From a bacterium (GTDB lineage Bacteria > Patescibacteriota > UBA1384 > JAGGWG01): DNA of 64,000 nucleotides. This document shows, one piece after another, positions 15,201-43,345 of this stretch; position 1 is the stretch's first letter; each line of letters starts with the position of its first letter. The notes under the pieces are model-generated. The model was given only the letters and a program-made list of their open reading frames with translations, searched no databases and was not told the origin of the DNA. The DNA is taken from NCBI GenBank assembly GCA_021157605.1, contig JAGGWG010000020.1, positions 1,110 through 65,109 on the forward strand, in the 5' to 3' direction. The translations under genes were made by a program, and so were the position numbers.

Positions 15201-16219
15201 AAAGCTTGATAAAATCCTGAGCCAAGATTTTTTATTTTACCTTTGACCTCTAACTCACTCAGTTTAGCCAAGGTTTTTGAAGCACTCAAGCCAAGATGTT
15301 TTTGAACCTCCTCTATATATCTGGGCTGAGACAAAAACAAAAGCAGAGAATCTGACTTTTTGTTCTTTGTTTTGGGCCAAAAACTAATAAACTCCTCCTC
15401 AATATCTTTAGCCTCAAAAACAGGTTTGGCACCTTGCCTCATTAAAGTAAAGCAACCCTTGCTTGTCAAGCGGAATATATTAGCCGGAACCGCCATAACC
15501 TCCCTGCCATAACGAGCCGCATAACTGGCAGTACTCAATGACCCAGATTTTTCTCCAGCCTCAACTACTACTGTAGCTAAGCTTAAACCGGCAATAATAC
15601 GATTGCGGGCTAAAAAATAGTATCTCTCTGGCTTAAATCGCGGCGGATACTCACTAATGACCGCTCCGCCGCTTCTTACTATTTTTTCCGCCAGCCCCTG
15701 GTTAAGAGAAGGATAAAGAGCTAAAAAACCAGAACCCAAAACCGCCACTGTTTTATGGTCTGACTCTAAAGCTGCTTGATGAGCAAAGCTGTCAATACCC
15801 ACAGCTAAGCCAGAAACAATCACCCAAGGACAGACAAGATTAAAAATTAAATTAAAAACAGCTTTCTTGCCGTACAAAGTCGCCCGTCTTGCTCCTACAA
15901 AAGACAAAGAACGCTGACTTAAACTTTTACTTTTGCCCCAAACAAAAAGATAAACCGGGGGATCAGCAATCTCTTTTAAAATTTGGGGGTAATTTTTTTG
16001 GTCTAGACGCAAAAGATTAAACTCTTTTGCTTCTTTAAACTCTTTTTCTAAAGCCGAGAGATTTAAACTTTCTAAACGTTTATAAAAACTGCGGCTCACA
16101 CCCTTGAGAGGTCTGGGATTTTTAAGATAGCGAGAATTCAGAGCTTGGGCAGACTTAAGAGCTAAAAAATCCTTTTGGGAAGGCAAAGCATTAGCTAAAC
16201 AAAAATCAACAAAACGCAT
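15197..16219 (-). CDS. dprA: DNA processing protein DprA (Smf)
   Basis: VSGLAVGIDSFAHQAALE Rossmann-fold motif; the conserved dprA-topA gene pair. Confidence 0.8.
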   Translation of the reverse strand: MRFVDFCLANALPSQKDFLALKSAQALNSRYLKNPRPLKGVSRSFYKRLESLNLSALEKEFKEAKEFNLLRLDQKNYPQILKEIADPPVYLFVWGKSKSLSQRSLSFVGARRATLYGKKAVFNLIFNLVCPWVIVSGLAVGIDSFAHQAALESDHKTVAVLGSGFLALYPSLNQGLAEKIVRSGGAVISEYPPRFKPERYYFLARNRIIAGLSLATVVVEAGEKSGSLSTASYAARYGREVMAVPANIFRLTSKGCFTLMRQGAKPVFEAKDIEEEFISFWPKTKNKKSDSLLLFLSQPRYIEEVQKHLGLSASKTLAKLSELEVKGKIKNLGSGFYQAL

Positions 16220-24161: not shown

Positions 24162-24619
24162 TGTTCTTTTTTAGTTTGGATTTTATCTAAAATTTGGTTA
24201 ACTAATTTATCAGCACGACTATTCTTTTTGCGGGGGATATAAACAAACTCAACTTCCATTCTAGTTTCCCAAATCAAACGCTTAATTGCAATAAAAAACT
24301 TCTGCATCCGTTCATTTTTAACTTTAAAATTTCCGCCTAGCTGTTTGGCTACCAACAAGGAATCAAGAAAAAAAATTGCTTTTTTAACCTTAAGTTTTTT
24401 GAGATGCTTTAAAGCCAAAATCACTGCCCGATATTCAGCCTCATTATTTGTCCCCTTGCCCCAAAACTTGCCTCCTTTTGCTATCAATTTACGCTTAGGA
24501 GATAGAACAAGATAAGCTGAAGCTGAGGGACCGGGGTTGCCCCTAGAAGCACCATCGCAATAAACAAAAAAATTTTCTTTCATCTGTTTTATCTTATCAG
24601 AAGCAAGTTTTCTTATCAA
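24158..24619 (-). CDS. rnhA: Ribonuclease HI
   Basis: VYCDGASRGNPGPSASAYLV RNase H-fold motif; 153 aa. Confidence 0.8.
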   Translation of the reverse strand: MIRKLASDKIKQMKENFFVYCDGASRGNPGPSASAYLVLSPKRKLIAKGGKFWGKGTNNEAEYRAVILALKHLKKLKVKKAIFFLDSLLVAKQLGGNFKVKNERMQKFFIAIKRLIWETRMEVEFVYIPRKKNSRADKLVNQILDKIQTKKEQ

Positions 24620-25551
24620 AACTCTGCCTGATAAATAGAATAATCCAAAACATCAGAAATACTCTTTAGGCGGTTGGGAAATTTAACAAATAAAGTGCGG
24701 CAATCAGTTGCAGAACATCCGTTACTAATAATTAATGTTTCCGGAACGCCTAATTTATCACCAGAGCCAAAATTAAAATAAAGTTGACCAGCGCTGTTAA
24801 AAACCTTAATTTTTAATAAGCGGAAACGAGAAAAATTACGCACCATAAAACTGCATTTCTCTACTCCGTTTTCGTAAGCGCACCTTGTCCTACTTAATCG
24901 CAGTTGATTTTCTCCGCTGCCAAAAAGAGAGCCCAAAGACTCCAATCGGGATGAGCCACCAACGAAATGATAGCGCACCAACCCCTCAATCATCTCTTGA
25001 TTATTAGGATCTTCAGCCCTGAACCAAACCAAAGCTTTTTCTTTTTCTGCTGGGTTGCTGCCCAAAGGCACAAAACTGACATTTAGACGACCTTCATAGC
25101 GAGAAACATCAAAAAGAAGCGAGTCATCCTTTTTAAGGTCAAAAATTTGCGGGGAAACAGCAGTATAGCTACTTATGGCAAGAGTGTTATTAAAATTACT
25201 ATCGTAGTAATGAACTCGTGGGTAATGAGTTGCCTTTTGGTAATAACTACGAGCACTACTAAAATCTAAATATTCGGAAGTTGTAGAACTCAAAAAACCT
25301 TTTATTGCTGTCCTTGGCCAATTTAGAAAAAGAAGCGAATCAGAATTGTAAGGTGTATAGTTATCAATTTTGTATAAAGCTGTCTCAATTCCTCCCCAAG
25401 CCATCCAGTACTTTAACTCATCTTGGTAAGACTGACGCCTAGATAGCACAGAAAAAACCACTAAATTAAAACTCAATTGCATTATTGCGACCAAAGCTCC
25501 TATAAGCATCACTGAGTAAAGCAAAGCTGAGCCGCGATTTGTCCTTTTCAT
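24616..25551 (-). CDS. Hypothetical bitopic membrane protein at the distal end of the pilus operon (non-canonical pilin-like N-terminus)
   Basis: N-terminal TM MKRTNRGSALLYSVMLIGALVAIM without the G/FTLIE prepilin signature; 4-bp overlaps with the upstream pseudopilin gene and the downstream rnhA. Confidence 0.4.
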   Translation of the reverse strand: MKRTNRGSALLYSVMLIGALVAIMQLSFNLVVFSVLSRRQSYQDELKYWMAWGGIETALYKIDNYTPYNSDSLLFLNWPRTAIKGFLSSTTSEYLDFSSARSYYQKATHYPRVHYYDSNFNNTLAISSYTAVSPQIFDLKKDDSLLFDVSRYEGRLNVSFVPLGSNPAEKEKALVWFRAEDPNNQEMIEGLVRYHFVGGSSRLESLGSLFGSGENQLRLSRTRCAYENGVEKCSFMVRNFSRFRLLKIKVFNSAGQLYFNFGSGDKLGVPETLIISNGCSATDCRTLFVKFPNRLKSISDVLDYSIYQAEF

Positions 25552-26288
25552 AAATAAGGATTAGCTTTAACTAAAGGCACAAAAACTTGCTTAAGCTCTC
25601 GCCAATAGGTTTTCTTGCCCCATTGCTCTACTAAAGTAACCTCCATTTTAACCCATAAATCAAAAGGTCTTATCTCTGTTTGGGGATCAAAAATACTTTT
25701 AGCTACCTTCTTTTGGGACGGCTTAGCTGTTATTTGGAAAAAATGTCTTTTGTTCTTGTCAAAATTACCTAATTCAGACCACCCTACACCCTCTTCGCGC
25801 CAAATAGTTCTGCCGCCCTCCTCTTCTTCAACCCAGTTTTTAACCTTTATTTTGCCTGTTTCCCCGCTATCATCTAACCAAAAAACATATATTTTACCCG
25901 ATCGTTCATCTTTAATATACAAATAACGGCCACGCGCAGAATGGTTTAAAACCCCTCTAATTTTTCTCAAAACTGCATTGTTGTGTTGAGTATTGCCTGG
26001 ATCCAAAAAGTCTTTAGAAGCAAAGAAAAGATTAGCTTTTTTATCCAAAAGAGTTGGCCAAAAGTCAGAACCGTCCAGCAAATCTCCATTAGCTTCCCTT
26101 ACTGCTGACCTGATTGTTTCTGTAATATTTTTAGCGTTTTGCCCCAAAACTACTGTCATTTCCAATTCTTTCCTGCTTCTTAGTGCTCCTGTCAATATGC
26201 CGTACACCACAACTAAAAGAGAAGTAAAAATAAAACTAGCCAACAAAAGCTCAATTAAAGTAAAACCTTTTTGGTTCTTTGCCATCAT
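25548..26288 (-). CDS. Minor pilin / pseudopilin (prepilin-type N-terminal cleavage/methylation domain)
   Basis: MMAKNQKG|FTLIELLL: Gly at -1, Phe at +1, Glu at +5. Confidence 0.7.
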   Translation of the reverse strand: MMAKNQKGFTLIELLLASFIFTSLLVVVYGILTGALRSRKELEMTVVLGQNAKNITETIRSAVREANGDLLDGSDFWPTLLDKKANLFFASKDFLDPGNTQHNNAVLRKIRGVLNHSARGRYLYIKDERSGKIYVFWLDDSGETGKIKVKNWVEEEEGGRTIWREEGVGWSELGNFDKNKRHFFQITAKPSQKKVAKSIFDPQTEIRPFDLWVKMEVTLVEQWGKKTYWRELKQVFVPLVKANPYL

Positions 26289-26290
26289 TT

Positions 26291-26839
26291 TTAAAGATAA
26301 TTGCCAAGTAGGGTGTAGAATTTCTTTATTTTTTCTCTGCCAAACCTATCTTGCCATTTAACCTCAAATTTTACCTTAACCAAACCCTCTTCTTTTTGGG
26401 TAGAATCTCTATCTTTATAAACAGGCTCTAAGCAAAGGCGATAATTAAGACGCACTGAACCACTATCGTTAACTATTTTATTCACCTCCTGCCAAGAATG
26501 AGCGCCCAAAAGAGTATTTATCTTCCAAGTATTGTCGTCCAAAGAAAGATAAAAACAAGAAGCATCTCTCAAAGGCAAGATACTGCTTTCCCAATTAGTT
26601 GTTTTGTCTTTGTCAAAAGCTATTTGGTTCCTATAAGCAACTAAAGCTGAAAACTGCTCTTCAGCTAATAAATTAATATAGCTTTCAGCGTTATGCCTTA
26701 AAATCTCATTTAAATTGTTAATATTCATATAAACCACAATTAAAACTATTCCTCCTAAAATTCCTAAAGAAACCAAAACCTCCATCAAAGTAAAACCTGC
26801 ATTTTTAAAATTTTTAAACCTCTTTAAGCTCAAAGCCAT
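26291..26839 (-). CDS. Minor pilin / pseudopilin
   Basis: ...FKNAG|FTLMEVLVSLGILG prepilin signature. Confidence 0.7.
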   Translation of the reverse strand: MALSLKRFKNFKNAGFTLMEVLVSLGILGGIVLIVVYMNINNLNEILRHNAESYINLLAEEQFSALVAYRNQIAFDKDKTTNWESSILPLRDASCFYLSLDDNTWKINTLLGAHSWQEVNKIVNDSGSVRLNYRLCLEPVYKDRDSTQKEEGLVKVKFEVKWQDRFGREKIKKFYTLLGNYL

Positions 26840-27359
26840 AAATTATCTTCTTTTTATCAACAACCATACACTTTTTCTCTTTTTGGCGCTTAAAACAAAT
26901 CTCGACTAAAAAATCACCATTTTCTTTTTTTAATGTAGGAATAGCATTGATTTTTTCAAGATTTAAACCACCTAAACCCTGATTAAGTATTTCAATTTCT
27001 ATTTTCTCTAAATCACGACCGCCGTTCTTATCTTTCCCCTCAATAACAATATCATTCTCTTGGTAGTTAATAAATGCCAAACATGTTCTCAAAGAAACAC
27101 CAGGTCCTGTTTTACACTCTGTTGCAAATTCCTGGTTTTCAAAATCAAAAGTAATAAATACATCTTGACATCTTCCTTGACGCAATGATTCTTGGGCAAA
27201 AATAAGAGCTTTCTTAGTTCTAATTATTACTGAATCCAGCAGCTCTTTTTGAGACATAGAGGAAAAATTATACAAAACTCCTCCGCTAAGAATAGCAATA
27301 ACACCTAAAACTAAAATTATTTCCACCAAGCTAAAACCCCTATTCTTAGCAAAAGCCAT
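26814..27359 (-). CDS. Minor pilin / pseudopilin
   Basis: MAFAKNRG|FSLVEIILVLGVIAIL prepilin signature. Confidence 0.7.
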   Translation of the reverse strand: MAFAKNRGFSLVEIILVLGVIAILSGGVLYNFSSMSQKELLDSVIIRTKKALIFAQESLRQGRCQDVFITFDFENQEFATECKTGPGVSLRTCLAFINYQENDIVIEGKDKNGGRDLEKIEIEILNQGLGGLNLEKINAIPTLKKENGDFLVEICFKRQKEKKCMVVDKKKIIYGFELKEV

Positions 27360-27373
27360 TACTTTTTATTTTA

Positions 27374-28150
27374 TCACAAAAAATTAAGCAAAAAACCCCT
27401 CGCTTGGGGAAAGAAATAAAGAACAAAAAAAGAAAAAATTAAAAACGGAGCAAAAGGAACCAAGCTTTGACGTTCCTTAACCTTTAACAAAAGCAAAAAA
27501 ACAGCCACTATCCCCCCAAAAACAAAAGCTAACCAAATAAAAATCAAACTCAACCTCCATCCCCAAAAAAGACCCAAAACCCCTCCTAATTTAGCATCAC
27601 CAAGACCAAACCATTTGCCTTGAGAAAATAAATAAAGCGACCAAAAAAGAATAAAAACTAAAACCCCTCCCAACAAACTTTGCCATATTGAGATATTAGC
27701 TAAGGGCGGAATTTTAAAAATATATTTTACTAGCCACAAGCCAAAAATAATTAGAATAAATCCATCAGGAATAACCATTTTTCTAAGATCATAAAAAGCA
27801 ACAACTAAAAGAAAAGAAGTAAAAAAACAGGCAAAAATAAATGCTTTGCTAAAGCCAAACTGCCAAAAAGATAAAACAAAAACTAAACCACTAAACAATT
27901 CGATCAATAATACTCTCCAGCCTATAGGTTGCTGGCAATATCGGCACTTCCCTCTTAAAAGCAAAAAACTAATTAAAGGTATTAAATCTTGAGCATAAAG
28001 ACGGTGGCGGCAATGAGAACAAAAAGAATAACCTCTCAAATTAAGACGCAAACCTTTATGAGAAACAAACTGCAATCTGCTGACTATTACCTCTAAAAAG
28101 CTCCCCCAAATTATCCCACCAACAAAAGCACTTAATAAATTCCAATACAA
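27374..28150 (-). CDS. pilD: Prepilin peptidase (A24 family)
   Basis: N-terminal CSHC...CRYC zinc-binding region, multi-TM body, catalytic GLGDAKL motif. Confidence 0.8.
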   Translation of the reverse strand: MYWNLLSAFVGGIIWGSFLEVIVSRLQFVSHKGLRLNLRGYSFCSHCRHRLYAQDLIPLISFLLLRGKCRYCQQPIGWRVLLIELFSGLVFVLSFWQFGFSKAFIFACFFTSFLLVVAFYDLRKMVIPDGFILIIFGLWLVKYIFKIPPLANISIWQSLLGGVLVFILFWSLYLFSQGKWFGLGDAKLGGVLGLFWGWRLSLIFIWLAFVFGGIVAVFLLLLKVKERQSLVPFAPFLIFSFFVLYFFPQARGFLLNFL

Positions 28151-28171
28151 GATATAATTTAACTCTTTAAC

Positions 28172-28600
28172 CTACATTTCTTGGCAACTCCCTCCTGTAG
28201 AACAAATAAAACGTTTGCCTCTTTTGCTTTCGTAATATGTCTGCACAGTATAATCAGTAATAGAAGCATTATGATAAGAACTCCCCTGCCGCCACGCATA
28301 AGCCCCTATGTCAGTACCCCTGACATTACACGGCCCTATTTTTCCTGTAGCTGGATCACTACTTAAATAGGGGGAAAGATCTGCCCAAGAAGTAGCATAT
28401 TTGCCGTTATCATTGTAATAAGACTCTTGCGCTTCTGAAATAGATCTCACAATTGCTTTTCTTTGCGTATCTCTTGCTTGCGACCTTACTCTTGAGGTGG
28501 CCACTAATACCAAACCAGCCAAAATTCCCAAAATAGCGATTACTGCCAAAAGCTCAATAAGGGTAAAGCCTCTGCTTTGTTTAAGGGCGGTTTTAATCAT
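28172..28600 (-). CDS. pilA: Type IV major pilin (PilA-like) with C-terminal Cys-containing loop
   Basis: MIKTALKQSRG|FTLIELLAVIAILGILAG, and a C-terminus with several Cys (CNVRG...CSTGGSC); 142 aa. Confidence 0.8.
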   Translation of the reverse strand: MIKTALKQSRGFTLIELLAVIAILGILAGLVLVATSRVRSQARDTQRKAIVRSISEAQESYYNDNGKYATSWADLSPYLSSDPATGKIGPCNVRGTDIGAYAWRQGSSYHNASITDYTVQTYYESKRGKRFICSTGGSCQEM

Positions 28601-28670
28601 AACTAATAAATTAGTTTTTAACTATATTAATTTTATTCTATCCCACCTTATCTTCCAAGTTATCCACAAG

Positions 28671-29873
28671 TTAACTTATTGGCAATTGAACTAAGCCATA
28701 AATAGGCCCAAATACTGACCAAACCATTATTGCCACCCCTACAGCCAAAACTACAATTATAATTGGTTCCACCAAAGACACGACTTTTTTGACATAAGAA
28801 TCTGTTTTTTCCTGATAATACTGGGCCAAACGCAGAAACATCTTTTCTAAACTCCCTGTTTGTTCCCCAACACTAATAAGCTGGGATTCTAAAGTAGGAA
28901 AAACGCTTTCCTGTGCCAAAGAAGAACTAAAAGGCAAGCCTCTTTCTACTTTAGCCTTAATTCTATCTAAAGACTCTTTAATAATTAAAAAAGACATTGA
29001 GTTTTTAACTAAGTCAATCGCCTCTAAAATAGGGGTGGCAGATTTAAAAAGAAGATAGAAAAGACGATTAAGTCTAGCCATTTGGCTCCGCAGCAGCACG
29101 TCTTTAACTACAGGCAAAGAAAAAAGCAGTCTTTCTGTCCACATCTTTACTTTTTTACTGGAATTAATACACCAGTAAAAAAAGATGCCAATAACAATTA
29201 AACCTAAAAGCAATGCCCACCAATAATGGGCTAAAAACATACCTACTCCAACTACCAATTTTGTTTGCCAAGGAAGATCAACATTAGCTTCTTCAAAGAG
29301 TACTTTAATTCTAGGCACAAAATCAGTAATCACTAAAAAACCAACAACTAACATTGCTGCTACTACAAATATAGGGTAAAGAAGAGCTGACCAAAGTGAG
29401 CTGGAAAAATGTGCTTCATCCTCTAGGATTTTAGCTAAAGTCTCAAAAACCTCGGGCAGATTTCCTGAAGCCTCTCCTGAACGCACCACCGCAATAATTA
29501 CTGGTTCAAAAACATCACTATAGCTTTCCATAGCTTTACTCAAACTATTGCCAGCCCTTACCTGTTCGCCAACATTTCCGACTATTTCTTGAAAATACTT
29601 GTTTTGTGTCTCTGTTTCAATAATTGCTAAAGCTTTATCAATAGGAAAACCAGCCTTAAGCATGGTAGCTAACTGACGCATAAAAACAGCTTTTGCTCCA
29701 ACACTCACCTTTTTAAAAAAAGTAAAACTTCCCTCCTGTTTCTCTTTTATCCACAAAACCAAAAGACTTTGTTGTTCTAAATGCTTTTTGGCTGAAAGCG
29801 CATCTTGGGCTTCAATAACACCAGTTTGAATTGTTCCTTTTTTATCCTGAGCGCTGTAAAAAAAATTTTTCAT
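28671..29873 (-). CDS. pilC: Type IV pilus platform protein PilC (GspF family)
   Basis: 400 aa with two GspF-like repeats and three TM segments; sits between pilT and the pilin gene. Confidence 0.85.
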   Translation of the reverse strand: MKNFFYSAQDKKGTIQTGVIEAQDALSAKKHLEQQSLLVLWIKEKQEGSFTFFKKVSVGAKAVFMRQLATMLKAGFPIDKALAIIETETQNKYFQEIVGNVGEQVRAGNSLSKAMESYSDVFEPVIIAVVRSGEASGNLPEVFETLAKILEDEAHFSSSLWSALLYPIFVVAAMLVVGFLVITDFVPRIKVLFEEANVDLPWQTKLVVGVGMFLAHYWWALLLGLIVIGIFFYWCINSSKKVKMWTERLLFSLPVVKDVLLRSQMARLNRLFYLLFKSATPILEAIDLVKNSMSFLIIKESLDRIKAKVERGLPFSSSLAQESVFPTLESQLISVGEQTGSLEKMFLRLAQYYQEKTDSYVKKVVSLVEPIIIVVLAVGVAIMVWSVFGPIYGLVQLPIS

Positions 29874-29876
29874 AGT

Positions 29877-30980
29877 TTAGTAAAGTTCTTGTTTAAAAAC
29901 TTGGGGGTTTTCAGCCCAAACCAAAGCATCCTCAATCTTTACTTCACCCCTTTTGACCAACTCTATTAGGGTTTTATCCAAACTAATCATACCCTCAGCA
30001 AAAGAAGTTTGAATAATATTGGGAATCTGATGTGATTTACCTTCCCTAATGGCATTTCTTACAGCTACATTGGCAATCAAAACCTCACAAGCAACAATCC
30101 TACCCCCTTTAGTACGAGGCAAAAGGCGTTGAGAGATAACACCTAAAAGAGTGTTAGCTAGCTGCTGTCTAATTTGCCGCTGTTGATGTTCAGGAAAGAT
30201 ATCTACGATTCTATCTACTGTTTGAGCTGCGTTATTAGTATGCAAAGTAGTCAAAACTAAATGTCCGGTCTCAGCTAAAGTTAAAGTAGCTTCAGCACTA
30301 TCCTTATCTCTCATTTCTCCCAAAAAAATTACATTAGGATCTTCTCTTAAAGCTGAACGCAAAGCCCGTTTAAAAGAAAGGGTATCAGTATAAACCTCCC
30401 TTTGGGCAATAATTGATTTTTTATTTACAAAAACATACTCTATAGGATCCTCAACAGTAATAATATGTTCACTGCGGGTCTGATTAATGTATTCAAGCAT
30501 TGAAGCAATAGTGGTTGATTTTCCGTGCCCAGTAGGACCAACCACAATAAAAAGCCCTTGTTTGGCTGAAGCAAACTTTTCCAGAATCGGAGGCAAACTT
30601 AATTCAGCAAAACTCCTAATTTCTGAAGGGATAACTCTTAAAGAAACACTAACATCCCCTTTTTGACGAAAGATATTTACTCTCATTCGATGGTTGTCAA
30701 AAGCAAAAGAAAAATCAGCCTCCTTTTCCCGCTCAAACCTTTGCCTTTGCCAATCGTCCATAAAGGGAGAAACCATCTTTAGTATCTCTTCCGAAGTAAA
30801 TTTTGGAGTCTTTTGTACTACCAAATTACCGTTTATCCTAAAAACCGCCGGCATGCCCGGGAAAAAATGAACATCAGAGGCCTTGCTTTGGCAAGCCAAA
30901 TGAAATACCTCCTCTGCTTGAGCTTTGTAATTTGCCCCTTCTGCACTAGTAGGAGGGGAGGTGAAATTTTCTTTAACCAT
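29877..30980 (-). CDS. pilT: Type IV pilus retraction ATPase PilT
   Basis: Walker A VVGPTGHGKSTT and GHLVLTTLHTNNAAQTVDRIVDIFP (the PilT His-box region); 367 aa. Confidence 0.85.
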   Translation of the reverse strand: MVKENFTSPPTSAEGANYKAQAEEVFHLACQSKASDVHFFPGMPAVFRINGNLVVQKTPKFTSEEILKMVSPFMDDWQRQRFEREKEADFSFAFDNHRMRVNIFRQKGDVSVSLRVIPSEIRSFAELSLPPILEKFASAKQGLFIVVGPTGHGKSTTIASMLEYINQTRSEHIITVEDPIEYVFVNKKSIIAQREVYTDTLSFKRALRSALREDPNVIFLGEMRDKDSAEATLTLAETGHLVLTTLHTNNAAQTVDRIVDIFPEHQQRQIRQQLANTLLGVISQRLLPRTKGGRIVACEVLIANVAVRNAIREGKSHQIPNIIQTSFAEGMISLDKTLIELVKRGEVKIEDALVWAENPQVFKQELY

Positions 30981-31037
30981 ACCTAAGTATAATTTTATCC
31001 CACCGCTGACTTCTCTTTATCCACAGGTAAACTTATT

Positions 31038-32891
31038 CTAAAACTGCTCTTTTAGTTCTGCCCCCATAATTGAAACCCGCAAAGCCTCCTCTAATGTTGT
31101 TTCTCCTCTGGCAGCTTTAACTAAAGCATCTTCAAACATAGTCACCATACCTTTTTTTCTAGCTGCCCTTAAGATGTCTGTCCCCCTAACTCTTTGAGTA
31201 ATAAGTGCCTGTATTTCGTCATCTATCTCTATAGCCTCAAACACGCCAATTCGTCCCAAATACCCCTGATGGCAACGCGAATCCTCTATCCCTTTATAAA
31301 ATCTATAAGGAGGCTCGGGAATATCTAAACCGCTATTTTTAGGTATCTGTTTAATAATGCGAGCCACTTTTTCATAAAGAGCTTCAGGTATCTTTTCTTC
31401 AGTTTTGCCATAAGGGCAGATGCGTCTAACCAAACGCTGAGCTATAACTAAATTAATTGCAGAAGCAATCAAAAACGGCTCAATCCCCATATCAACTAAA
31501 CGTGGAATGGCGCCAGAAGCATTGTTGGTATGCAAAGTAGTCAAAACTAAATGGCCGGTCAAAGCCGCGTGGATTGCCATTTCTGCTGTTTCTTTATCCC
31601 TAATTTCACCAATCATAATAATATCTGGATCTTGCCTTAAAATCGACCGCAAACCAGAAGCAAAAGTAAAACCCGCCTGCGGTCTAATTTGTGACTGGGC
31701 AATACCTTCAATTTCATATTCAACTGGATCCTCTAAGGTGACAATATTAACTTCGGACCTGTTAATCATTGAAAGAGCTGCATAAAGAGTTGTTGTTTTT
31801 CCTGAACCAGTAGGGCCGGTAACAACCACCATGCCAAAAGGTTTTCTAATATTTTCTACCATATGCTCATAACTTGCCCCCCTTAAGCCAAGGGTTCTTA
31901 AATCCATCAATTTTTTTTCTTTTTCTAAAATGCGCATTACCACCTTTTCTCCATAAACAGTAGGCAAAGTGGAAATACGCAAATCAATTTTTTTCTCTCC
32001 AAACATCACACTAAAACGACCATCCTGAGGTTTTCTTCTCTCATCAATCCGAAGATCAGCCAAAATTTTGACACGGCTGACTAAAGCCGGAAGCAACTCC
32101 CTTTTAATCTCTGCTACCTGAGACAAAACTCCGTCAATACGATACCGGACTAAAACCTTATGAGAAAAAGGCTGAATATGGATATCTGAAGCTCTTTTAG
32201 AAATAGCAAAACTAATAATAGCAGCTATCATTTGGGGCACATAACCTTTAGCTAAAATATCTCGCAACTCCTGCACAGAACGCGGCTGCTCAACTAATAA
32301 TTTTTCTAAAGATGCCAACGCCTCCTTTTTTGTAGTATCAACAGCTGAAACTTGAGATTTTTTTGTGATCACCCGAGAAACAATATGAGCTGCACCGGCT
32401 TTCTTTTTAAGAATTTCTTTTTTGTAGTCTTTTATAGTTTTTTCTATTTGCGAAGGCAAAGCTCCATAAACCTCTAACTTAACTCTATTCTTATCCTCTA
32501 TATACCTGACCAATGCCCGAACTGCAGGATGCGTAGGCCAAGCAGTAGCTACTTTGTAAACCTTATCCCCCAAATGCTCAAATACTAAAATTTTGTACTT
32601 CTTAGCGATATCTAAAGGTATTTTTTTTAAAAGTTCTTTTGGTTTATGACTATAAAGATTTATTTCAGACACATTAGCTATCTGGCAAAGCACCTTGAGT
32701 ATCTCTCTTTCTCTCTGGCTAAACTTAGTGTATAAAATCTCTTCTAAGCGGTGGTTTTCTTTTTGTTTTATTCTCCTTAAAAGCTCTATCTCTTCTGGAC
32801 TAAAAACTCTTTGCTTTTCTAAGGCCAAAATTATCTCCTCCTCTTGGTCAATAGCCTTTTGGGGACGCAAAGATATCACTTTATTCAACAT
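31038..32891 (-). CDS. pilB: Type IV pilus assembly ATPase PilB (GspE family)
   Basis: N-terminal GSPII_E_N-like region, Walker A VVVTGPTGSGKTTTLYA, GHLVLTTLHTNNASGAIPRLVDMGIEPFLIASA, and a C-terminal tetracysteine-like region. Confidence 0.85.
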   Translation of the reverse strand: MLNKVISLRPQKAIDQEEEIILALEKQRVFSPEEIELLRRIKQKENHRLEEILYTKFSQREREILKVLCQIANVSEINLYSHKPKELLKKIPLDIAKKYKILVFEHLGDKVYKVATAWPTHPAVRALVRYIEDKNRVKLEVYGALPSQIEKTIKDYKKEILKKKAGAAHIVSRVITKKSQVSAVDTTKKEALASLEKLLVEQPRSVQELRDILAKGYVPQMIAAIISFAISKRASDIHIQPFSHKVLVRYRIDGVLSQVAEIKRELLPALVSRVKILADLRIDERRKPQDGRFSVMFGEKKIDLRISTLPTVYGEKVVMRILEKEKKLMDLRTLGLRGASYEHMVENIRKPFGMVVVTGPTGSGKTTTLYAALSMINRSEVNIVTLEDPVEYEIEGIAQSQIRPQAGFTFASGLRSILRQDPDIIMIGEIRDKETAEMAIHAALTGHLVLTTLHTNNASGAIPRLVDMGIEPFLIASAINLVIAQRLVRRICPYGKTEEKIPEALYEKVARIIKQIPKNSGLDIPEPPYRFYKGIEDSRCHQGYLGRIGVFEAIEIDDEIQALITQRVRGTDILRAARKKGMVTMFEDALVKAARGETTLEEALRVSIMGAELKEQF

Positions 32892-32958
32892 TGTTCTAAT
32901 TATACCATCTTTTCCTTTTCAAAACTTTTATATCACGGGTTCCAAAAAAGAAAAAAAC

Positions 32959-33174
32959 CTATTGAAAAGGATTTGTTTTGCCAATCTGCTCAGCTGAATA
33001 AGTAATGGGAAGATTGGTATAGGAAGATCTATTTTTTAATTCAGAAACTGTTTTTTCTTTTTGCACTGAAACATAGGAAGTATTGGTTTCCTCGGGACGG
33101 GAAAACCAATAAAGCAAAACCACAGCTGCTACCCCAATAATAGCCAACAGGATAAAATTTCCAGTTTTTTTCAT
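32959..33174 (-). CDS. Small bitopic membrane protein (71 aa) between pilO-like and pilB; possible PilP-like accessory protein
   Basis: Single N-terminal TM (FILLAIIGVAAVVLLYWF); position only. Confidence 0.3.
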   Translation of the reverse strand: MKKTGNFILLAIIGVAAVVLLYWFSRPEETNTSYVSVQKEKTVSELKNRSSYTNLPITYSAEQIGKTNPFQ

Positions 33175-33179
33175 AAATT

Positions 33180-33713
33180 TTATTTAGCTAAATAGTAAAC
33201 TATTAATTTAAAATTAGCACTCAAATTGCCATCAAGATTCTTAGAAAGAGTAAGGCTATCTATACGAGAAACACGTTTTATTTTTTCTAAACGAGAGATA
33301 AAATTTTTAAGATTATTATAGCTTCCTTCTGCAGTTATGGTTAACTCATAAGAAGTAATGGTCCCTTTTTTAGCTGAATTGGCAGAATAATCTAAAGAAG
33401 GAGAAAAATCACTTAAGCCCACTTGTGACTTAAAGGCAGCTGCCTCAATACTGGACAATAACTCTGCTGTCGCTGAACTATCAGGAAGAGCTATCTGTAA
33501 TTCTTGTTGGAAAGTACTTTCTTTTATCTTTTCACTTAAAGCACGAGTAAAATCTTGGCGCGCCTCCCAATTGACTAGTTCTTGTTTTGTTTCTCCTAAT
33601 TCTTGACCAGAAGCAAAAAGCAATTTTGCTCCTTGGAAAATACCAAAATAAAGTACTACTATGCCTAAAACAACTAAACCGATTGATACCAAACTTGATT
33701 TATTAAACCTCAT
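33180..33713 (-). CDS. PilO-like pilus alignment protein (bitopic)
   Basis: N-terminal TM, 177 aa, immediately downstream of the PilN-like gene; assigned from size, topology and position, not from a motif. Confidence 0.4.
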   Translation of the reverse strand: MRFNKSSLVSIGLVVLGIVVLYFGIFQGAKLLFASGQELGETKQELVNWEARQDFTRALSEKIKESTFQQELQIALPDSSATAELLSSIEAAAFKSQVGLSDFSPSLDYSANSAKKGTITSYELTITAEGSYNNLKNFISRLEKIKRVSRIDSLTLSKNLDGNLSANFKLIVYYLAK

Positions 33714-33714
33714 T

Positions 33715-34239
33715 TTAAAGTTTAGATTCTAAAATAAAAGAAACAATCACTTTACCGTTTTCTGCTGAATGGTTGGCTTCCCTAACCTCTACATTATCTA
33801 ATAATGCACTCTGCTGTTTTAAAGCGGTAGCAAAAAGAGGCACAGAACGGTAATCAGTAGTAATCCCACCAATAATTAACTTATCCTTCTCAATCTCTAT
33901 TGAAGAAAGAACAGTATTTTTGGGAATAGATTTTTCAATATCAGCGAGAAGTTTGCTCACCACTGGCTGACCATACAAAGTAGCTAACTTGCCTATTCGG
34001 CCTTCCAATTGAGAAAGCTCTTCCTCATCAACCTGAGCATAAACCTCAGCTTTGATTGACTGAATTTTTGAATTTTGACGCTGAACAACAATCATCCTCC
34101 AAGCATATCCTAACCAAATAATTAAAGCTAAAGCCAAAAAATATATTACCCCTCCTACTAAAAGACGGTTATCTCCTGATAATGTTAATTTTTTCTCTGT
34201 TTCTTCCATTCTGTCTTTTATTATACTAAATTTCGCCAA
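33715..34239 (-). CDS. PilN-like pilus alignment protein (short cytoplasmic N-terminus, TM, coiled-coil)
   Basis: ~24-aa cytoplasmic N-terminus, then a TM (LLVGGVIYFLALALIIWLGY), then a predicted coiled-coil; first gene after the vWA gene. Confidence 0.4.
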   Translation of the reverse strand: MAKFSIIKDRMEETEKKLTLSGDNRLLVGGVIYFLALALIIWLGYAWRMIVVQRQNSKIQSIKAEVYAQVDEEELSQLEGRIGKLATLYGQPVVSKLLADIEKSIPKNTVLSSIEIEKDKLIIGGITTDYRSVPLFATALKQQSALLDNVEVREANHSAENGKVIVSFILESKL

Positions 34240-34260: not shown

Positions 34261-36480
34261 TTATTCGGAAGGTGGGTAATAAAGATATATTTTTTCTAAC
34301 AAAGGAGAAAGTCCAGGGATATCACGCCAATAAGCCTCTTTATCTCTTCCCTGAATTTCAACATTGCCTTCAATCTTTTTAGCAATAAAAGCCCCTAAAA
34401 GATTAACTGGCGACTGAACCTTTATTGTTCCTCCGATATCCCCATAGGGCAAAACAATAAATACACCGCGCGCGCAGCTTATATCAGAAGATAAATTTAA
34501 ATTTCCTCCCCAAACTAAAACGCCAAAAGTTTTTTCACAAACAGCACTCGCTAAATCAGAACTCAAAATATATTCTCTACCCGGCGAACTTCTGGAATCA
34601 AGAATATAAAGCCTGCCTGAACGCAAAGTCAAACCATCCAAACTATCAACTACCTTTATACCTGTCGGCTGCTCACTGAGAAAATATTCCAAAATTCCAC
34701 TTACCTCTTTTTGAAATCGTTGTGAAGCAGAATAACTCTCTTCCTCAAAATCATAATCACGCAAAAGAGCCAAACTGCCTTGGGGATAATGAAAACTGCT
34801 ATTAGCAGAAAGCACAACCAAATCAGCTCTCAAGGGAATATCCTGACTTTCTAAATATATATCACCTTGACCTGAAATTCCGGGAGAAACAAGAAGGTTG
34901 TATTGGGGCAAACTGTTTTCCTCCAAACGACCTTCCTGAGAAGCAAACCACTGTATTTTAGAACCAGCACAATCCACACATCCGGAACCTAAAGCACTAT
35001 CTTTAATAGAAAAATATATCTTTAAATTTAAGTTTTCAAATATGGTATCTTCTGGAAAAACAATCTCTAACTGCCCATTATTCTCATTTACACTATCAGG
35101 CACAACCTGAACTCCACCGGCAAAAGCCTCAACACTATTAAAAGTAAGCAAAGATGGGGAAAAACTTTCCACTACTTTTATGCCTCCCGTACCACTCAAA
35201 GCTTCTAATATCTGGCGGAAAATACTCTCAATGTTTTCACTTCCTTGAGGAATATAGTAGTACATTCCTCCAGTTTCAAAAGATAAGCCATTTAAAAGAT
35301 TAAATTTGACACCTGGCAAAGGCAAATCTGTCTTGACCAAAGAATATTGGATTCCTGACCTTTCCCTAACTTCAAAAACCGCACTTCTGTCTCCGCCTCT
35401 ACCATCAATGCTGCCTGGACACACAGAAGACGGACAGTTATAAATAGGATGAATAGATGTTAAAGACGAGGATTCTCTCGGAGGGCTCCCATCCGCATCT
35501 TCGCCATAACCTACATTGTATAATTTAATATTATCGCTCTTAAGCGCCTCAATTAATTCTAAGGAATTAGCTGGCGGATGATTGGTGTCACAATCATAAT
35601 GCGGATTCCGACTAGGATTCTCAAGATATCTCTTAAAATCCCAATTTTCTGTGCAGGCATACTGAGGATTGTTTTGATTTAAATAACAAGCGCTTTCATT
35701 CCCCGGACTAGGATTAGCAATATAAAATATATTTTCTTTACCCTGTCTGCCATCTGTAAAATTTAAAATTACTTTTTTGGCTGAATTATTTTTTACCTTG
35801 TTATTAAACAACCTTAATCCTTCTGAAAGTCCCCACCCCATTGCTGTCTGGTGGCATTTGCGATCAGCAATACGGTCTTCGGTAATTTTCTCAACTTGCT
35901 GACGTAAACTACTAACTTGAGAAGTAAAATTAATTTCTTCTACCCAATTAGGGTTATTATAGGTCTCTTTCCATTCACCGTTATAATAACCAATCATTGT
36001 GTCATAACGCAGTAAAGCCACCCTTATCTTTGTTGAAGAAGTTCTTCTTAAATTAATTTGCTCTAAACTATCCAAAAAAGTTAATAAACCTTCCTGTGCC
36101 GCTTCCATTTTACTCCGACAACTCTCGTTTAATTCCCTTCCATCTTCACATTTATTGGTCATAGACCAACTACTATCTACCAAAAGAAGTAAATAAGTCT
36201 CCTGGGCTTCTTTTTTTAATGGTTCTATTTCTAAATCAATCTGAATATTAGCTCTATTTCTTACTTCATTAGTTGTGGAGGAAGAAAGGAGACGGTTTTG
36301 CCCTCGATAAACCTCGTAAACACTCTTAGCAAAAACAGGGAGCTCACCCTCTTCTATTCCTTCTTCTGAAAAAAGAAAAAGATGCGCTGCTGGCGGTGGA
36401 ACCATTCCTAAAACTGTATTAGAGGACAACATCAAAAATAAAGCTACTGCTAAAACAAACAATTTTTTAAAACTATGCAT
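34261..36480 (-). CDS. Secreted von Willebrand factor A (MIDAS) domain protein, 739 aa, at the head of the pilus operon (candidate pilus-associated adhesin)
   Basis: Signal peptide MHSFKKLFVLAVALFLMLSSNTVLG; LLLVDSSWSM contains the DxSxS MIDAS motif. The large C-terminal region is rich in short repeated beta-like segments and carries many Cys. Confidence 0.65.
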   Translation of the reverse strand: MHSFKKLFVLAVALFLMLSSNTVLGMVPPPAAHLFLFSEEGIEEGELPVFAKSVYEVYRGQNRLLSSSTTNEVRNRANIQIDLEIEPLKKEAQETYLLLLVDSSWSMTNKCEDGRELNESCRSKMEAAQEGLLTFLDSLEQINLRRTSSTKIRVALLRYDTMIGYYNGEWKETYNNPNWVEEINFTSQVSSLRQQVEKITEDRIADRKCHQTAMGWGLSEGLRLFNNKVKNNSAKKVILNFTDGRQGKENIFYIANPSPGNESACYLNQNNPQYACTENWDFKRYLENPSRNPHYDCDTNHPPANSLELIEALKSDNIKLYNVGYGEDADGSPPRESSSLTSIHPIYNCPSSVCPGSIDGRGGDRSAVFEVRERSGIQYSLVKTDLPLPGVKFNLLNGLSFETGGMYYYIPQGSENIESIFRQILEALSGTGGIKVVESFSPSLLTFNSVEAFAGGVQVVPDSVNENNGQLEIVFPEDTIFENLNLKIYFSIKDSALGSGCVDCAGSKIQWFASQEGRLEENSLPQYNLLVSPGISGQGDIYLESQDIPLRADLVVLSANSSFHYPQGSLALLRDYDFEEESYSASQRFQKEVSGILEYFLSEQPTGIKVVDSLDGLTLRSGRLYILDSRSSPGREYILSSDLASAVCEKTFGVLVWGGNLNLSSDISCARGVFIVLPYGDIGGTIKVQSPVNLLGAFIAKKIEGNVEIQGRDKEAYWRDIPGLSPLLEKIYLYYPPSE

Positions 36481-36540
36481 TAAGTCAATTATAGCAGAAC
36501 TAAAAAAATATTAAAAAGTGGAATAAAAAACTACCTTACT

Positions 36541-37008
36541 TTACTTTTTAAACCCCACCCATTTAGCTAATTCATCCAACTCTCGTACCCCTACTTTTGC
36601 TTCCCCTTTATACTTCCAAGTAGGCACTCCCTCAATTTGCGCCTGATTACACACAGCCATATTTTCTTCAAAATAGCAATCTATACTCTTTAGATATTTT
36701 TGCGCTTCCCCAAACATCTCCAATTGATCATGGCAATGAGGACAACTATTTCCATAGTAAAGCACCACACCTTTCTCTGCTAAAAACTTTGCCAACCTCT
36801 CTTTATCTTTGTTGCTCCAATCAGCTGAATAGTTCTGCTCCTCATTATTGCTTTCTAACGGACCCGTTACTTCGCCAGCAACATTTTGGGTAGATTTGCT
36901 TTTAATATACCAATACATACCGCCAACAGCAGCCAAAAAAATAATAAAAAAACCTAACACTGCCAAACCAATTCGCTCACCAATCTTATCTGCTTGTTTC
37001 TTTTTCAT
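36541..37008 (-). CDS. Membrane-anchored thioredoxin-fold thiol-disulfide oxidoreductase (CPHC active site, DsbA-like)
   Basis: YYGNSCPHCHDQ active site preceded by an N-terminal TM. The track ORF extends to 37062, but that extension overlaps tRNA-Trp, so the start is taken at the internal Met (cat at 37006-37008). Confidence 0.7.
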   Translation of the reverse strand: MKKKQADKIGERIGLAVLGFFIIFLAAVGGMYWYIKSKSTQNVAGEVTGPLESNNEEQNYSADWSNKDKERLAKFLAEKGVVLYYGNSCPHCHDQLEMFGEAQKYLKSIDCYFEENMAVCNQAQIEGVPTWKYKGEAKVGVRELDELAKWVGFKK

Positions 37009-37035
37009 AAAAGGAATTGTTTTAAAAATAACAAA

Positions 37036-37107
37036 CAGGAGCGGGAGGACTCGAACCCCCAACTCCGGTTTTGGAGACCGGCAGTTTACCAGTTAGCCTA
37101 CGCTCCC
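37036..37107 (-). tRNA. tRNA-Trp(CCA): tRNA-Trp (anticodon CCA)
   Basis: Reverse complement folds as a cloverleaf GGGAGCG/...CCGGT-CTCCAAA-ACCGG.../TTCGAGT T-loop, with anticodon CCA; 72 nt, CCA tail not encoded. Confidence 0.85.
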
Positions 37108-37129
37108 ATTATTAAAACTTAATTTTTAA

Positions 37130-41320: not shown

Positions 41321-43345
41321 ATGCAAAGCCAAATTGCCAAAATCATTACTTCTCCAAAAATAGAATCCCGTTATTTTTTAACAGGTAGCTACACCCCCAG
41401 AGAAGAAAATCTAATTCAAAAAGGAACAATATTTTGGCTTATAGAGATAACTGCTCCGGGACAGGAAAAAATAGCTTCTCTAATTATCAAACGTTTTAAA
41501 CAATACTACACCCAAAAAGAAGACGGGCTTTGGGGTTTTGAAGCAGTATTAAAAAAGATAAACCGCCGTTTAGGTAAAGAACTACAACATAAAAACAGCA
41601 GTTGGGTTAATCATTTAAATGCAGTTCTGGGGTTAATTCAGGACAACTCTTTACATCTTGCCCCTACTGGCGAAGCAACTGCTTATCTTTTTAGAGAAAA
41701 CAAGATCTCCAATATTCTGGAAGTAGAAGAATCACCCCCGCCTTTACAAACCTTTATCAGCGTTATTTCAGGCGACCTACAACCTAATGACAAGGTCTTT
41801 CTGGGCAGCAGCGAGTTTTCTTCATATATGACTATTGAAACTTTAGCGGATTTTTTAAACTCCCCTACTGAAAAAGCGCTCCAAGAGATCGCCAACTACT
41901 TCAGAGAGAGAAATTTAAGAAAAATAAACGCTCTTATTGTTGACTGCTCTGAACAGCCGCTACATGTAGACACAATTTATTTAGACCAAGCCCCTGAAAA
42001 CAACTGGCAGAAAACGCTTAAATTTATTAAACAGAGCAAAGAAAAACTCTTTGTTTTAATCAACCAAGCAGCTTTAAACATTGGCTCCCAAGAATTAAAA
42101 TGGCTAAAAAAATACTGGCAAAATAAAAAAAATATCGAAACTGAAAAAAAATCTGCTTTTGTTGGCTCAGCTTTAAAAATAGAGGCAGTTAAAAAAATTA
42201 GCGGCTTAAGCAGTTTTTTTGCACAAAAGAAATTTAGGGAATTTTTGCAAAAACACAGAAGAAATATCACTTTGGTTGCTATTATTTTAACTCTTATAGC
42301 CTTTGCTTCTCTTACTGTTTGGCAAAAAAGCGGCTCCCACAAAAAAGACTTAATAGCTAAATTCGAACAAGCGCAAAAATTAGTAGAAGAAGCTAAAATA
42401 AAAAAGACAACCCGACAAACAGAAGAAGCTTATAACCTCTTAAATCAAGCCGAATCATTAGCTAAAGAAGTAAAATCTTACGCTCCCCTTTCTTCGCAGG
42501 CAGAAGACTTAAGTAAAATTATTAATGAAGAACTTAATACTCTCACCAATACCATCCGCCTTTCGCCCTTAACCCCTATACTCAGCGACCTCAATTCTCA
42601 AGGCGAAGTGGAAACAGAAAAACTACTTAATCTAAACGGCAAAATTATTACTTACAATCTTAAACACAACCAATTTTTCAGCATTGACCCTGCCACTAAA
42701 AAAACAGAAACTTACTTTTATCTACCGCAAGCAGTTGGCAACCCAGAGAAAGCAACCTTATTTTCCAGCGATACCACCTATTTCTTTATCCAAACTAATC
42801 AACAAAGCTTTTTTCTCTATTCCACTAAAGACAAAAATTTAGTTGAAGCCCCTCAGGCAGGAAGTTTTGATTGGCCAGCTCAAATTAAAGATCTGCTTAA
42901 TTTCCGCAACCGCGTCTATTTCTTTACGCCCTCTGGACTCTGGCGCTCAAGCTATACTGCCTCTGGCTTTACCTCTCCGCACAAAGCTTTGGAAACAGAC
43001 CTAAATAATGCTCTCTCAGCAACTATTGACGGAGCTATTTACTTGCTTTTTCCTCAGGGAGAAATAAAAAAATTTTTAGCCGGAAAAGAAACAGACTTTA
43101 GTCTAAAAATACCTTTTTATTTAGATCTCTCCCAAGCAGATAAAATCTTTACCCAACCTGATTTAGGCTCTTTATTTATTTTAATTAAAAACCAAAGAAA
43201 AATCGTTGTTTTTGATAAAGCCGGTGAATTCAAACAACAGATTGTTTTTCCTGAGGAATGGGGCGAAATTCAAGACTTTATTGCCGATGTTTCTGGCAAC
43301 CTCTTTGTTTTAGCGCAAAACAAGATATACCAAACAAAGTACTAA
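41321..43345 (+). CDS. Hypothetical bitopic membrane protein (674 aa): cytoplasmic N-domain, central TM, extracytoplasmic C-domain with beta-propeller-like repeats
   Basis: TM at ~residues 310-335 (ITLVAIILTLIAFASLTVW); the C-terminal half carries recurring YFF, IYLLF and LFVLAQN beta-strand-like blocks; no family recognised. Confidence 0.6.
   Translation: MQSQIAKIITSPKIESRYFLTGSYTPREENLIQKGTIFWLIEITAPGQEKIASLIIKRFKQYYTQKEDGLWGFEAVLKKINRRLGKELQHKNSSWVNHLNAVLGLIQDNSLHLAPTGEATAYLFRENKISNILEVEESPPPLQTFISVISGDLQPNDKVFLGSSEFSSYMTIETLADFLNSPTEKALQEIANYFRERNLRKINALIVDCSEQPLHVDTIYLDQAPENNWQKTLKFIKQSKEKLFVLINQAALNIGSQELKWLKKYWQNKKNIETEKKSAFVGSALKIEAVKKISGLSSFFAQKKFREFLQKHRRNITLVAIILTLIAFASLTVWQKSGSHKKDLIAKFEQAQKLVEEAKIKKTTRQTEEAYNLLNQAESLAKEVKSYAPLSSQAEDLSKIINEELNTLTNTIRLSPLTPILSDLNSQGEVETEKLLNLNGKIITYNLKHNQFFSIDPATKKTETYFYLPQAVGNPEKATLFSSDTTYFFIQTNQQSFFLYSTKDKNLVEAPQAGSFDWPAQIKDLLNFRNRVYFFTPSGLWRSSYTASGFTSPHKALETDLNNALSATIDGAIYLLFPQGEIKKFLAGKETDFSLKIPFYLDLSQADKIFTQPDLGSLFILIKNQRKIVVFDKAGEFKQQIVFPEEWGEIQDFIADVSGNLFVLAQNKIYQTKY

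Follow-up and report, generated by a model that had tools for sequence, protein, structure and literature searches.

A candidate non-pilin vWA/MIDAS adhesin encoded at the pilN end of a Patescibacteria type IV pilus operon

A 64,000-nucleotide stretch of the Patescibacteria contig JAGGWG010000020.1 (hereafter the window) carries on its minus strand, at 34261-36480, a gene for an exported protein with a von Willebrand factor A (vWA) domain and a MIDAS (metal ion-dependent adhesion site), directly upstream of pilN in a type IV pilus (T4P) operon. We put at about an even chance the reading that this protein is a non-pilin adhesin dedicated to the T4P of this lineage, presumably located at the pilus tip, and that it is an analogue, not a homologue, of PilY1/PilC. 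The gene is real. Its open reading frame (ORF) is uninterrupted (739 codons plus a stop codon at 34261-34263), the plus-strand frame of the same interval is full of stops, and an identical protein is deposited at NCBI as MCD6195075.1, 'VWA domain-containing protein [bacterium]'. Such an ORF is far beyond what chance would give; homologues of 24-68% identity share its synteny in seven lineages. All this bears out the first-pass annotation of the stretch, which had proposed an exported 739-residue vWA/MIDAS protein without stating its strand.

Sequence comparison makes the protein a member of the vWA superfamily. Pfam VWA (PF00092) matches residues 98-248 at E = 1.8e-5, scoring 25.5 bits where the cut-off is 23.8, and the homologues P0006 and P0007 score 47.4 and 40.9 bits against the same model. 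A profile of the family's vWA region matched the solved vWA domains of PTMP1 (4cn8, E = 2e-14), 4rck (9e-7) and SpaC (2e-4). These alignments, with Foldseek matches at E 1e-12 to 1e-8, place the domain at residues 96-430 (35191-36195, minus strand); it includes two long Cys-rich insertions, at about 244-305 and 326-394, where the predicted local distance difference test (pLDDT) score is low. The string LLLVDSSWSM, in which an intact DxSxS motif had been seen at first reading, is residues 97-106. The profile alignment puts D102, S104 and S106 (D102-S-S104-W-S106, 36163-36177), T212 (in QTAMGWGL, 35845-35847) and D243 (in NFTDG, 35752-35754) on the positions that DxSxS, T and TDG hold in PTMP1, 4rck and SpaC. 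The MIDAS is therefore complete, including the threonine and aspartate that the earlier annotation had proposed to look for, and its residues are invariant across the three close homologues.

What surrounds the vWA domain was examined by structure prediction. An AlphaFold 2 (AF2) model built from nine sequences reached pLDDT 66 and pTM 0.54 (a three-sequence run was poor, with pLDDT 43). In it, N-terminal beta-sandwich strands fall within residues 46-95 (36196-36345; strands 50-58, 61-64, 70-73 and 78-85, pLDDT about 85), and a C-terminal sandwich half with extra hairpins takes up residues 431-532 (34885-35190; strands within 433-531, pLDDT 72-89), where the invariant residues include F490, C501, S507 and W511. 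The best Foldseek matches of the model in the PDB were PitA (1.3e-12), Mfa5 (1.4e-10), SpaC (1.7e-10), integrin beta (4.5e-10), GBS104 (2e-9) and RrgA (1.1e-8), and the bacterial vWA protein 4fx5 was also matched; matches at E 1e-12 to 1e-8 span 570-650 aligned columns. PitA, SpaC, Mfa5, GBS104, RrgA and the integrin beta headpieces all have a vWA or beta-I domain inserted in a beta-sandwich, and the PitA, SpaC, RrgA and integrin beta hybrid-domain matches suggest that residues 46-95 and 431-515 likewise pair into one sandwich. The vWA-in-sandwich fold of sortase-pilus tip adhesins is thus found here too, in a model of moderate confidence whose topology is read from the matches. With the poorer three-sequence model, Foldseek found sandwiches of about 95 residues, of CnaB, cohesin or Ig-like type, from Gram-positive pilins and adhesins (probability 1.0). 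The kinship to vWA tip adhesins of other pilus types that had been suggested at first reading therefore stands at the level of fold, which by Foldseek is most like theirs. Other library searches gave little: a whole-protein phmmer search of the PDB returned noise alone (a cupin, E about 1), no NCBIfam family was matched, and the BFVD viral library yielded only giant-virus vWA proteins.

The remainder, residues 533-739 (34264-34884, minus strand), is a family-specific C-terminal module, hereafter the C-module. Its parts are, in order, a segment rich in invariant residues (GxGD[VI]Y ... Y-x-F), a helix at 583-603, a beta-rich core at 608-709 and terminal helices bearing IPGLxPxLxKIY. The last motif reads IPGLxPxLxKIYSFY across the family, and the window protein ends ...EKIYLYYPPSE. 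Residues 533-584 are modelled with low confidence and yet are rich in invariant positions (G539, D540, L573, Y576, F578 and S584); the confident unit comprises the helix 583-603, strands 608-709 and terminal helices 717-733. Conservation is concentrated in this module, which holds 12 of the 17 columns that are invariant across all nine sequences. In distant homologues the best-scoring stretch is C-terminal, its first residue falling between 310 and 525 and its last at 735-737, and identity to them is 28-32% over residues 583-739, 22-25% over the vWA domain and 12-23% over the sandwich. The 'large Cys-containing beta-rich C-terminal region' of the first-pass annotation is really two parts, the second sandwich half and a separate, novel module; of the 12 cysteines in the protein, four lie past residue 430.

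For this module, neither the protein sequence nor the profile of residues 533-739 found anything credible in Pfam, NCBIfam or the PDB (the profile's best match was ribose-5-phosphate isomerase, E = 0.22), and Foldseek searches aimed at the C-module with the first, low-quality model returned sandwich matches and a low-probability GH87 beta-helix only. A pilin-like C-module, or one akin to a neighbouring gene product, is unsupported: HHalign probabilities were at most 7% against PilN, PilO, the 71-residue protein of the operon, the pilin, the four minor pilins and the thioredoxin-like, TPR and 674-residue proteins. A hidden Markov model of the C-module, run against 1055 ORFs of the window and related loci, matched T4P-locus proteins only.

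Is the C-module needed by the adhesive head as such? A paralogue indicates that it is not. This protein (L016:7299-8954, 551 residues), found by a metagenome scan that also added one locus of the P0009 lineage, is encoded on contig Ga0123519_10000041 of the genome in which P0006 is also found. It has the family's signal peptide, sandwich, MIDAS-bearing vWA domain and second sandwich half, and its alignment to the family stops at the equivalent of window residue ~527. In place of the C-module it has a PQ-rich linker, the string LLLQTG (containing an LPXTG-like LLQTG), a transmembrane (TM) helix and KEE, a tail that by its composition is a sortase-type or simple membrane anchor. The window protein, unlike this paralogue, has no LPXTG sorting signal, TM segment or basic tail, and no hydrophobic segment after residue 30. 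Since the paralogue swaps the C-module for an anchor, the head is a portable adhesive unit and the C-module marks the pilus-operon copy; this module is likely the pilus-specific part of the protein. The paralogue is nearer to P0009 of another genome (47% identity, aligned over paralogue residues 38-479) than to the T4P copy of its own genome, P0006 (39%), which hints at exchange of the head module.

The family is small. An exhaustive phmmer search of 1.84 billion cluster representatives gave seven proteins at E ≤ 0.001, and a set of 5.8 billion proteins contained three close clusters of 100, 68 and 57% identity, beyond which the nine-sequence profile found nothing in that set. Two scans of GTDB species-representative genomes found no relative. 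The isoleucyl-tRNA synthetase (IleRS) encoded in the window is 50-54% identical to Patescibacteria enzymes (Parcubacteria, Paceibacteria, Minisyncoccales and Portnoybacteria) and 59-74% identical to those on contigs carrying family members, from which it follows that the family belongs to one small Patescibacteria clade. This placement in the Patescibacteria (candidate phyla radiation) makes host attachment a reasonable setting for an adhesin. One family gene, at L006:543-3073 (GCA_964400305.1), is split: an ORF at 543-1103 has the signal peptide and PPPAS, and the start of P0004 is at 1109. A frameshift, a pseudogene or an error of assembly may explain the split.

The T4P operon occupies 24616-34239, downstream of the vWA gene and like it on the minus strand; its pilN, pilO and pilin genes were identified by Pfam PilN, PilO and N_methyl matches and the rest were read from translations. 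As had been noted at first reading, the vWA gene stands upstream of pilN/pilO and pilB: pilN (33715-34239; PF05137, 1.7e-10) and pilO (33180-33713; PF04350, 4.4e-9) follow it directly, and a gene for a bitopic 71-residue protein (32959-33174) precedes pilB (31038-32891). Then come pilT (29877-30980), pilC (28671-29873), the 142-residue major pilin (28172-28600; N_methyl), pilD (27374-28150), three minor pilins (26814-27359, 26291-26839 and 25548-26288; N_methyl) and a GspK/PilX-like fourth minor pilin of 311 residues (24616-25551), recognized from its translated N-terminus. The four minor pilins would be components of a tip or priming complex.

This arrangement is conserved. In every one of the seven lineages with context the order is (L33)-Trx-like-vWA-pilN-pilO-70 aa-pilB-pilT-pilC-pilin-pilD-minor pilins, where Trx stands for thioredoxin, and the same order was recovered in L001, L005, L007, L009 and L011 with T2SSE, T2SSF and Peptidase_A24 matches. 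Conserved association with T4P genes in relatives, a check that the earlier annotation had proposed, is accordingly borne out, the gene lying directly upstream of pilN in all seven. In L007 two opposite-strand genes stand between the Trx-like and vWA genes and a gap of 311 nt precedes pilN, and the vWA-pilN adjacency is kept. An outgroup locus, L017, whose IleRS is 53% identical, has no T4P genes near IleRS.

Immediately upstream of the vWA gene, 60 nt away on the same strand, is a gene for a membrane-anchored thioredoxin-fold protein with a CPHC motif (36541-37008; Pfam Thioredoxin E = 0.0017 and NCBIfam TrbB 8.5e-4, both below cut-off). TrbB is the F-pilus disulfide isomerase. The gene is directly upstream in six of the seven lineages, and the CxxC motif and N-terminal TM segment are kept in five, making its product a candidate extracytoplasmic disulfide oxidoreductase. 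The description of the vWA gene as heading the pilus operon needs qualifying here: it is the first pil-associated gene but, because this same-strand gene is conserved 60 nt upstream of it, probably not the first of the conserved block.

The locus evolves unevenly, as measured by percent identity of the window proteins to their counterparts in the distant loci L005, L007 and L011. The values, in that order, are 27, 27 and 24% for the vWA protein, 27, 27 and 30% for minor pilin 1, 49, 48 and 57% for the major pilin, 59, 61 and 62% for PilC, 63, 61 and 66% for PilB and 70, 75 and 73% for PilT, with 39-44% for PilN and PilO and about 60% for IleRS. The vWA gene is the fastest-evolving gene of the locus, with only minor pilin 1 as fast, a rate that fits an exposed, target-contacting protein better than a part of the machine core.

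The N-terminus of the vWA protein, where a signal peptide had been seen at first reading, is from its residue pattern a Sec signal for signal peptidase I. The protein begins MHSFKKLFVLAVALFLMLSSNTVLG/MVPPPAAH (in full MHSFKKLFVLAVALFLMLSSNTVLG/MVPPPAAHLFLF, the slash marking the predicted cleavage site), with a basic n-region (KK), a hydrophobic core and a site with small residues at -3 and -1 (V-L-G, giving VLG/M). The signal peptide, residues 1-25 (36406-36480), was assigned from hydrophobicity and homologues; it is the sole strongly hydrophobic stretch in a Kyte-Doolittle scan of the protein, and the small -3/-1 residues are kept in all full-length homologues. The N-terminus has no prepilin motif (G/FTLxE), and the protein has no N_methyl match of the kind found in the pilin genes of the operon. 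In having a type I signal peptide the protein agrees with the non-pilin PilY1/PilC proteins. Directly after the signal peptide comes a conserved mature N-terminus, residues 26-37 (36370-36405), of the form M-x-PPPA-[SAT]-[RH]-x-F-L-F in the homologue alignment; PPPA is invariant in every full-length family member, and AF2 confidence is low over the segment. The idea that PPPA is a general sorting signal was rejected, as no other real gene in the window or the related loci has the motif.

In front of the gene, 9-14 nt upstream of its ATG, there is a perfect TATAAT (window 36481-36500, minus strand: gctataattgactta-ATG). A Shine-Dalgarno sequence is not seen there, and the gene's transcript may be leaderless or begin with a very short leader. 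A scan for promoter and terminator consensus sequences gave fewer matches than shuffled sequence, and no promoter was called at this TATAAT.

Taken as an adhesin of the pilus, the protein would work as follows. It would be exported by Sec and lose its signal peptide, and its 12 cysteines would probably be oxidized with the help of the CPHC thioredoxin-fold protein, as the conserved adjacency of the two genes suggests. The N-terminal ~530 residues are predicted to form a head of the integrin-beta/RrgA type which, by analogy with other vWA proteins, would use the MIDAS metal to bind an acidic group of a target surface. The C-module would tie the head to the pilus, most likely by docking on the priming or cap complex of four minor pilins as the PilY1 propeller does on PilX, with the mature N-terminal strand possibly joining in. 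Extension of the pilus would then present the head to a host cell, and retraction driven by PilT would pull the cells together. A bolder version, which we offer tentatively and think more apt to be wrong than right, is that the protein represents a new class of non-pilin T4P tip or priming protein in monoderm Patescibacteria, in which the C-module, perhaps with M-x-PPPA-S-R-x-F-L-F, replaces the propeller dock, in a machine apparently without PilM and without the PilM-binding motif of PilN.

The obvious comparison is with PilY1/PilC of type IVa pili (Pseudomonas, Neisseria, Kingella, Myxococcus). These too are non-pilins with a type I signal peptide and many cysteines, encoded with T4P genes; they have an N-terminal adhesive region, in many members a vWA domain with MIDAS, and their head is more variable than their C-terminal part. 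What defines the family is a seven-bladed beta-propeller at the C-terminus, PF05567 (PMC13190605), and in the published model of PilY1 the conserved C-terminal region docks on PilX by beta-strand complementation while the variable N-terminal adhesive domain is often a vWA domain (PMC13190605; PMC12607857). In Myxococcus xanthus the small redox protein TfcP is encoded just upstream of pilY1.1 (PMC13190605), an arrangement loosely like that of the thioredoxin-fold and vWA genes. The window protein differs in lacking the propeller and its calcium site, having instead an unrelated C-module of about 205 residues; its gene adjoins pilN/pilO rather than pilX/pilW/pilV/fimU, and its host is secretin-less.

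Structurally the closest proteins are RrgA, GBS104, SpaC and PitA of Gram-positive sortase pili, although identity is only 10-12%. They share the vWA/MIDAS domain in a beta-sandwich, long arms inserted in the vWA domain, and a CnaB/Ig-like sandwich, and they act at the pilus tip, where the window protein is placed by conjecture. They differ in that the window protein lacks LPXTG and a C-terminal TM segment and is tied to a type IV, not a sortase, pilus. The integrin beta headpiece likewise has a MIDAS-bearing vWA-like domain in a beta-sandwich (many Foldseek matches, E 1e-10 to 1e-8), but integrin beta belongs to a eukaryotic heterodimeric receptor, the window protein has no PSI, EGF, TM or tail region, and the likeness is at the level of fold (10-14% identity). 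A third group is the modular vWA pilins, Streptococcus sanguinis PilB and Caulobacter CpaL/Aggregatibacter TadG, for which a place at the tip alongside minor pilins has been proposed (PMC8179133; PMC12607857). Here again a vWA/MIDAS domain is tied to a type IV filament, in a monoderm or a Tad system. However, these proteins are pilins, with a class III signal peptide and a polymerizing N-terminal pilin module, whereas in the window protein the signal is of Sec type, a pilin module is absent and the system-specific module stands at the C-terminus. The window protein is therefore neither a PilY1/PilC protein, nor a modular vWA pilin, nor a sortase-pilus tip adhesin. A vWA adhesin tied to a pilus is nothing new, but we found no published description of this family, nor of its combination of features: a Sec-exported non-pilin with a sandwich-inserted MIDAS head, a new C-module and a PPPA N-terminus, encoded at the pilN end of a Patescibacteria T4P operon.

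Several observations weigh against a tip adhesin. The vWA gene, although in one operon with the four minor pilins, adjoins pilN/pilO and is separated from the minor pilins, with pilN, pilO, the 71-residue gene, pilB, pilT, pilC, the pilin gene and pilD in between; pilY1 is usually adjacent to minor pilin genes. The MIDAS is degenerate in two of the seven lineages, P0007 (G-L-T-A-S) and P0008, in which the aspartate and serines are lost, so that metal-dependent binding does not hold for the whole family. No known pilus-docking domain resembles the C-module, and HHalign against all the other locus proteins was negative. Finally, the structure model is of moderate confidence and leaves the invariant-rich residues 533-584 unmodelled.

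The alternative that best survives, which we nevertheless judge unlikely, is that the protein is cargo: a folded adhesin or matrix protein, exported by Sec and then driven by the T4P machine through the wall or S-layer in the manner of a type II secretion system, to stay on the surface or be released, with the C-module as a recognition or retention signal. There is a precedent in the monoderm Clostridium perfringens, where BsaC, a vWA protein of about 70 kDa with a Sec signal, needs the type IV pilin PilA3 for its secretion (PMC11580942). The window protein is similar in size to BsaC and has a Sec rather than a prepilin signal; its gene is beside machine genes rather than minor pilins. The precedent is imperfect in that bsaC lies in the sipW-bsaAB matrix operon, outside any T4P operon, whereas the window gene is fixed in one in seven lineages, and no sequence relationship between the two proteins was detected. 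Moreover, the presence of pilT in the operon indicates a retractile pilus and not only a piston, and the paralogue indicates that the head can reach the surface with a simple anchor and no C-module.

More doubtful still is a role in the envelope machinery, in which the protein would be an extracytoplasmic partner of PilN/PilO (and of the 71-residue protein), serving as a wall or S-layer link or an exit collar and filling a gap of the PilM/PilP/PilQ type. The gene does occupy the slot directly upstream of pilN that is the usual place of pilM, and no pilM was found in the window or in the related loci of about 20 kb (L001, L005, L007, L011), where PilN also lacks INLLP; furthermore, two lineages can do without the MIDAS, whereas PPPA and the C-module are kept. 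Yet a protein whose rate of evolution is about double that of PilN/PilO, and far above that of PilB, PilT and PilC, would be unusual in a machine core, and an extracytoplasmic protein is no substitute for the cytoplasmic PilM, whose gene may in any case lie elsewhere in the genome. The fold family is one of adhesins, and a head-only paralogue with a surface anchor exists.

It is very improbable that this is a generic vWA surface protein whose adjacency to pil genes is accidental. Such proteins are common, and compact Patescibacteria genomes often have unrelated neighbours, as in the housekeeping genes that flank this operon; but all seven lineages, at identities as low as 24%, keep the gene next to pilN, this adjacency survives the upstream insertions and the downstream gap of L007, and the C-module is exclusive to T4P-locus copies. 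Least credible is a true, divergent PilY1/PilC member: despite the signal peptide, the N-terminal vWA domain with MIDAS, the many cysteines and the location in a T4P operon, there is no PF05567 match in the protein even at E ≤ 1, no PilY1 among the top 50 PDB fold matches, and a predicted C-terminal unit of about 160 residues of helix and sheet, not a seven-bladed propeller of about 500; a profile of the C-module, moreover, finds nothing in the PDB or Pfam. The label 'PilY1-like' must hence be dropped as a statement of homology. The comparison with PilY1 and integrin I-domains that the first-pass annotation had suggested thus came out in part, with integrin beta headpieces matched and PilY1 not; and of the two findings it had named as telling against its proposal, a lack of propeller similarity was observed, while a lack of conserved pilus association clearly was not.

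Some details of the neighbourhood deserve record. The true start of pilN is probably the Met at ~34209 (MEETEKK) and not the TTG at 34239, and the N-termini of PilN, short and variable, have no INLLP motif for PilM binding. The 71-residue protein has a single membrane pass and an invariant C-terminal GKxNPF[QK], is kept in all related loci, and matches no family. The GspK/PilX-like protein has the N-terminus MKRTNRG/SALLYSVMLIGALVAI (RGSALLYSVML), without Glu5; it has no Pfam match and is kept at 35-51% identity in L001 and L005. The thioredoxin-fold gene likely starts at the Met at 37008, because the listed TTG at 37062 overlaps tRNA-Trp (37035-37108); tRNA-Trp, tRNA-Leu and tRNA-Tyr genes lie upstream of it. 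About 8 kb beyond the pilus operon is dprA (15197-16219, minus strand; DNA_processg_A, E = 2.7e-70), which is compatible with a DNA-uptake role of the same pilus. On the plus strand at 41321-43345 is a gene for a conserved 674-residue protein, with 45-72% identity at the same position in all related loci; there is a TM segment near its middle (around residue 320), its C-terminal half is beta-rich, and its only Pfam match is a sub-threshold Laminin_I.

Among the host-attachment organelles of Patescibacteria, type IV pili have the best support. The host binder is known for a few Saccharibacteria only, where the propeller-bearing minor pilin PilX2 has been proposed (PMC11623550). The family described here is rare, with seven clusters in one small clade; the locus would offer a different and simpler host-binding candidate for another, uncultured lineage, namely a pilus-specific module bearing an integrin-like MIDAS head. 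As a defined soluble domain, the head could be expressed and used to fish for a host receptor. If the C-module does dock on minor pilins, then the role played by PilY1 would have been invented more than once, with unrelated docking domains, and the C-module together with the PPPA motif would provide a sequence handle for finding such proteins.

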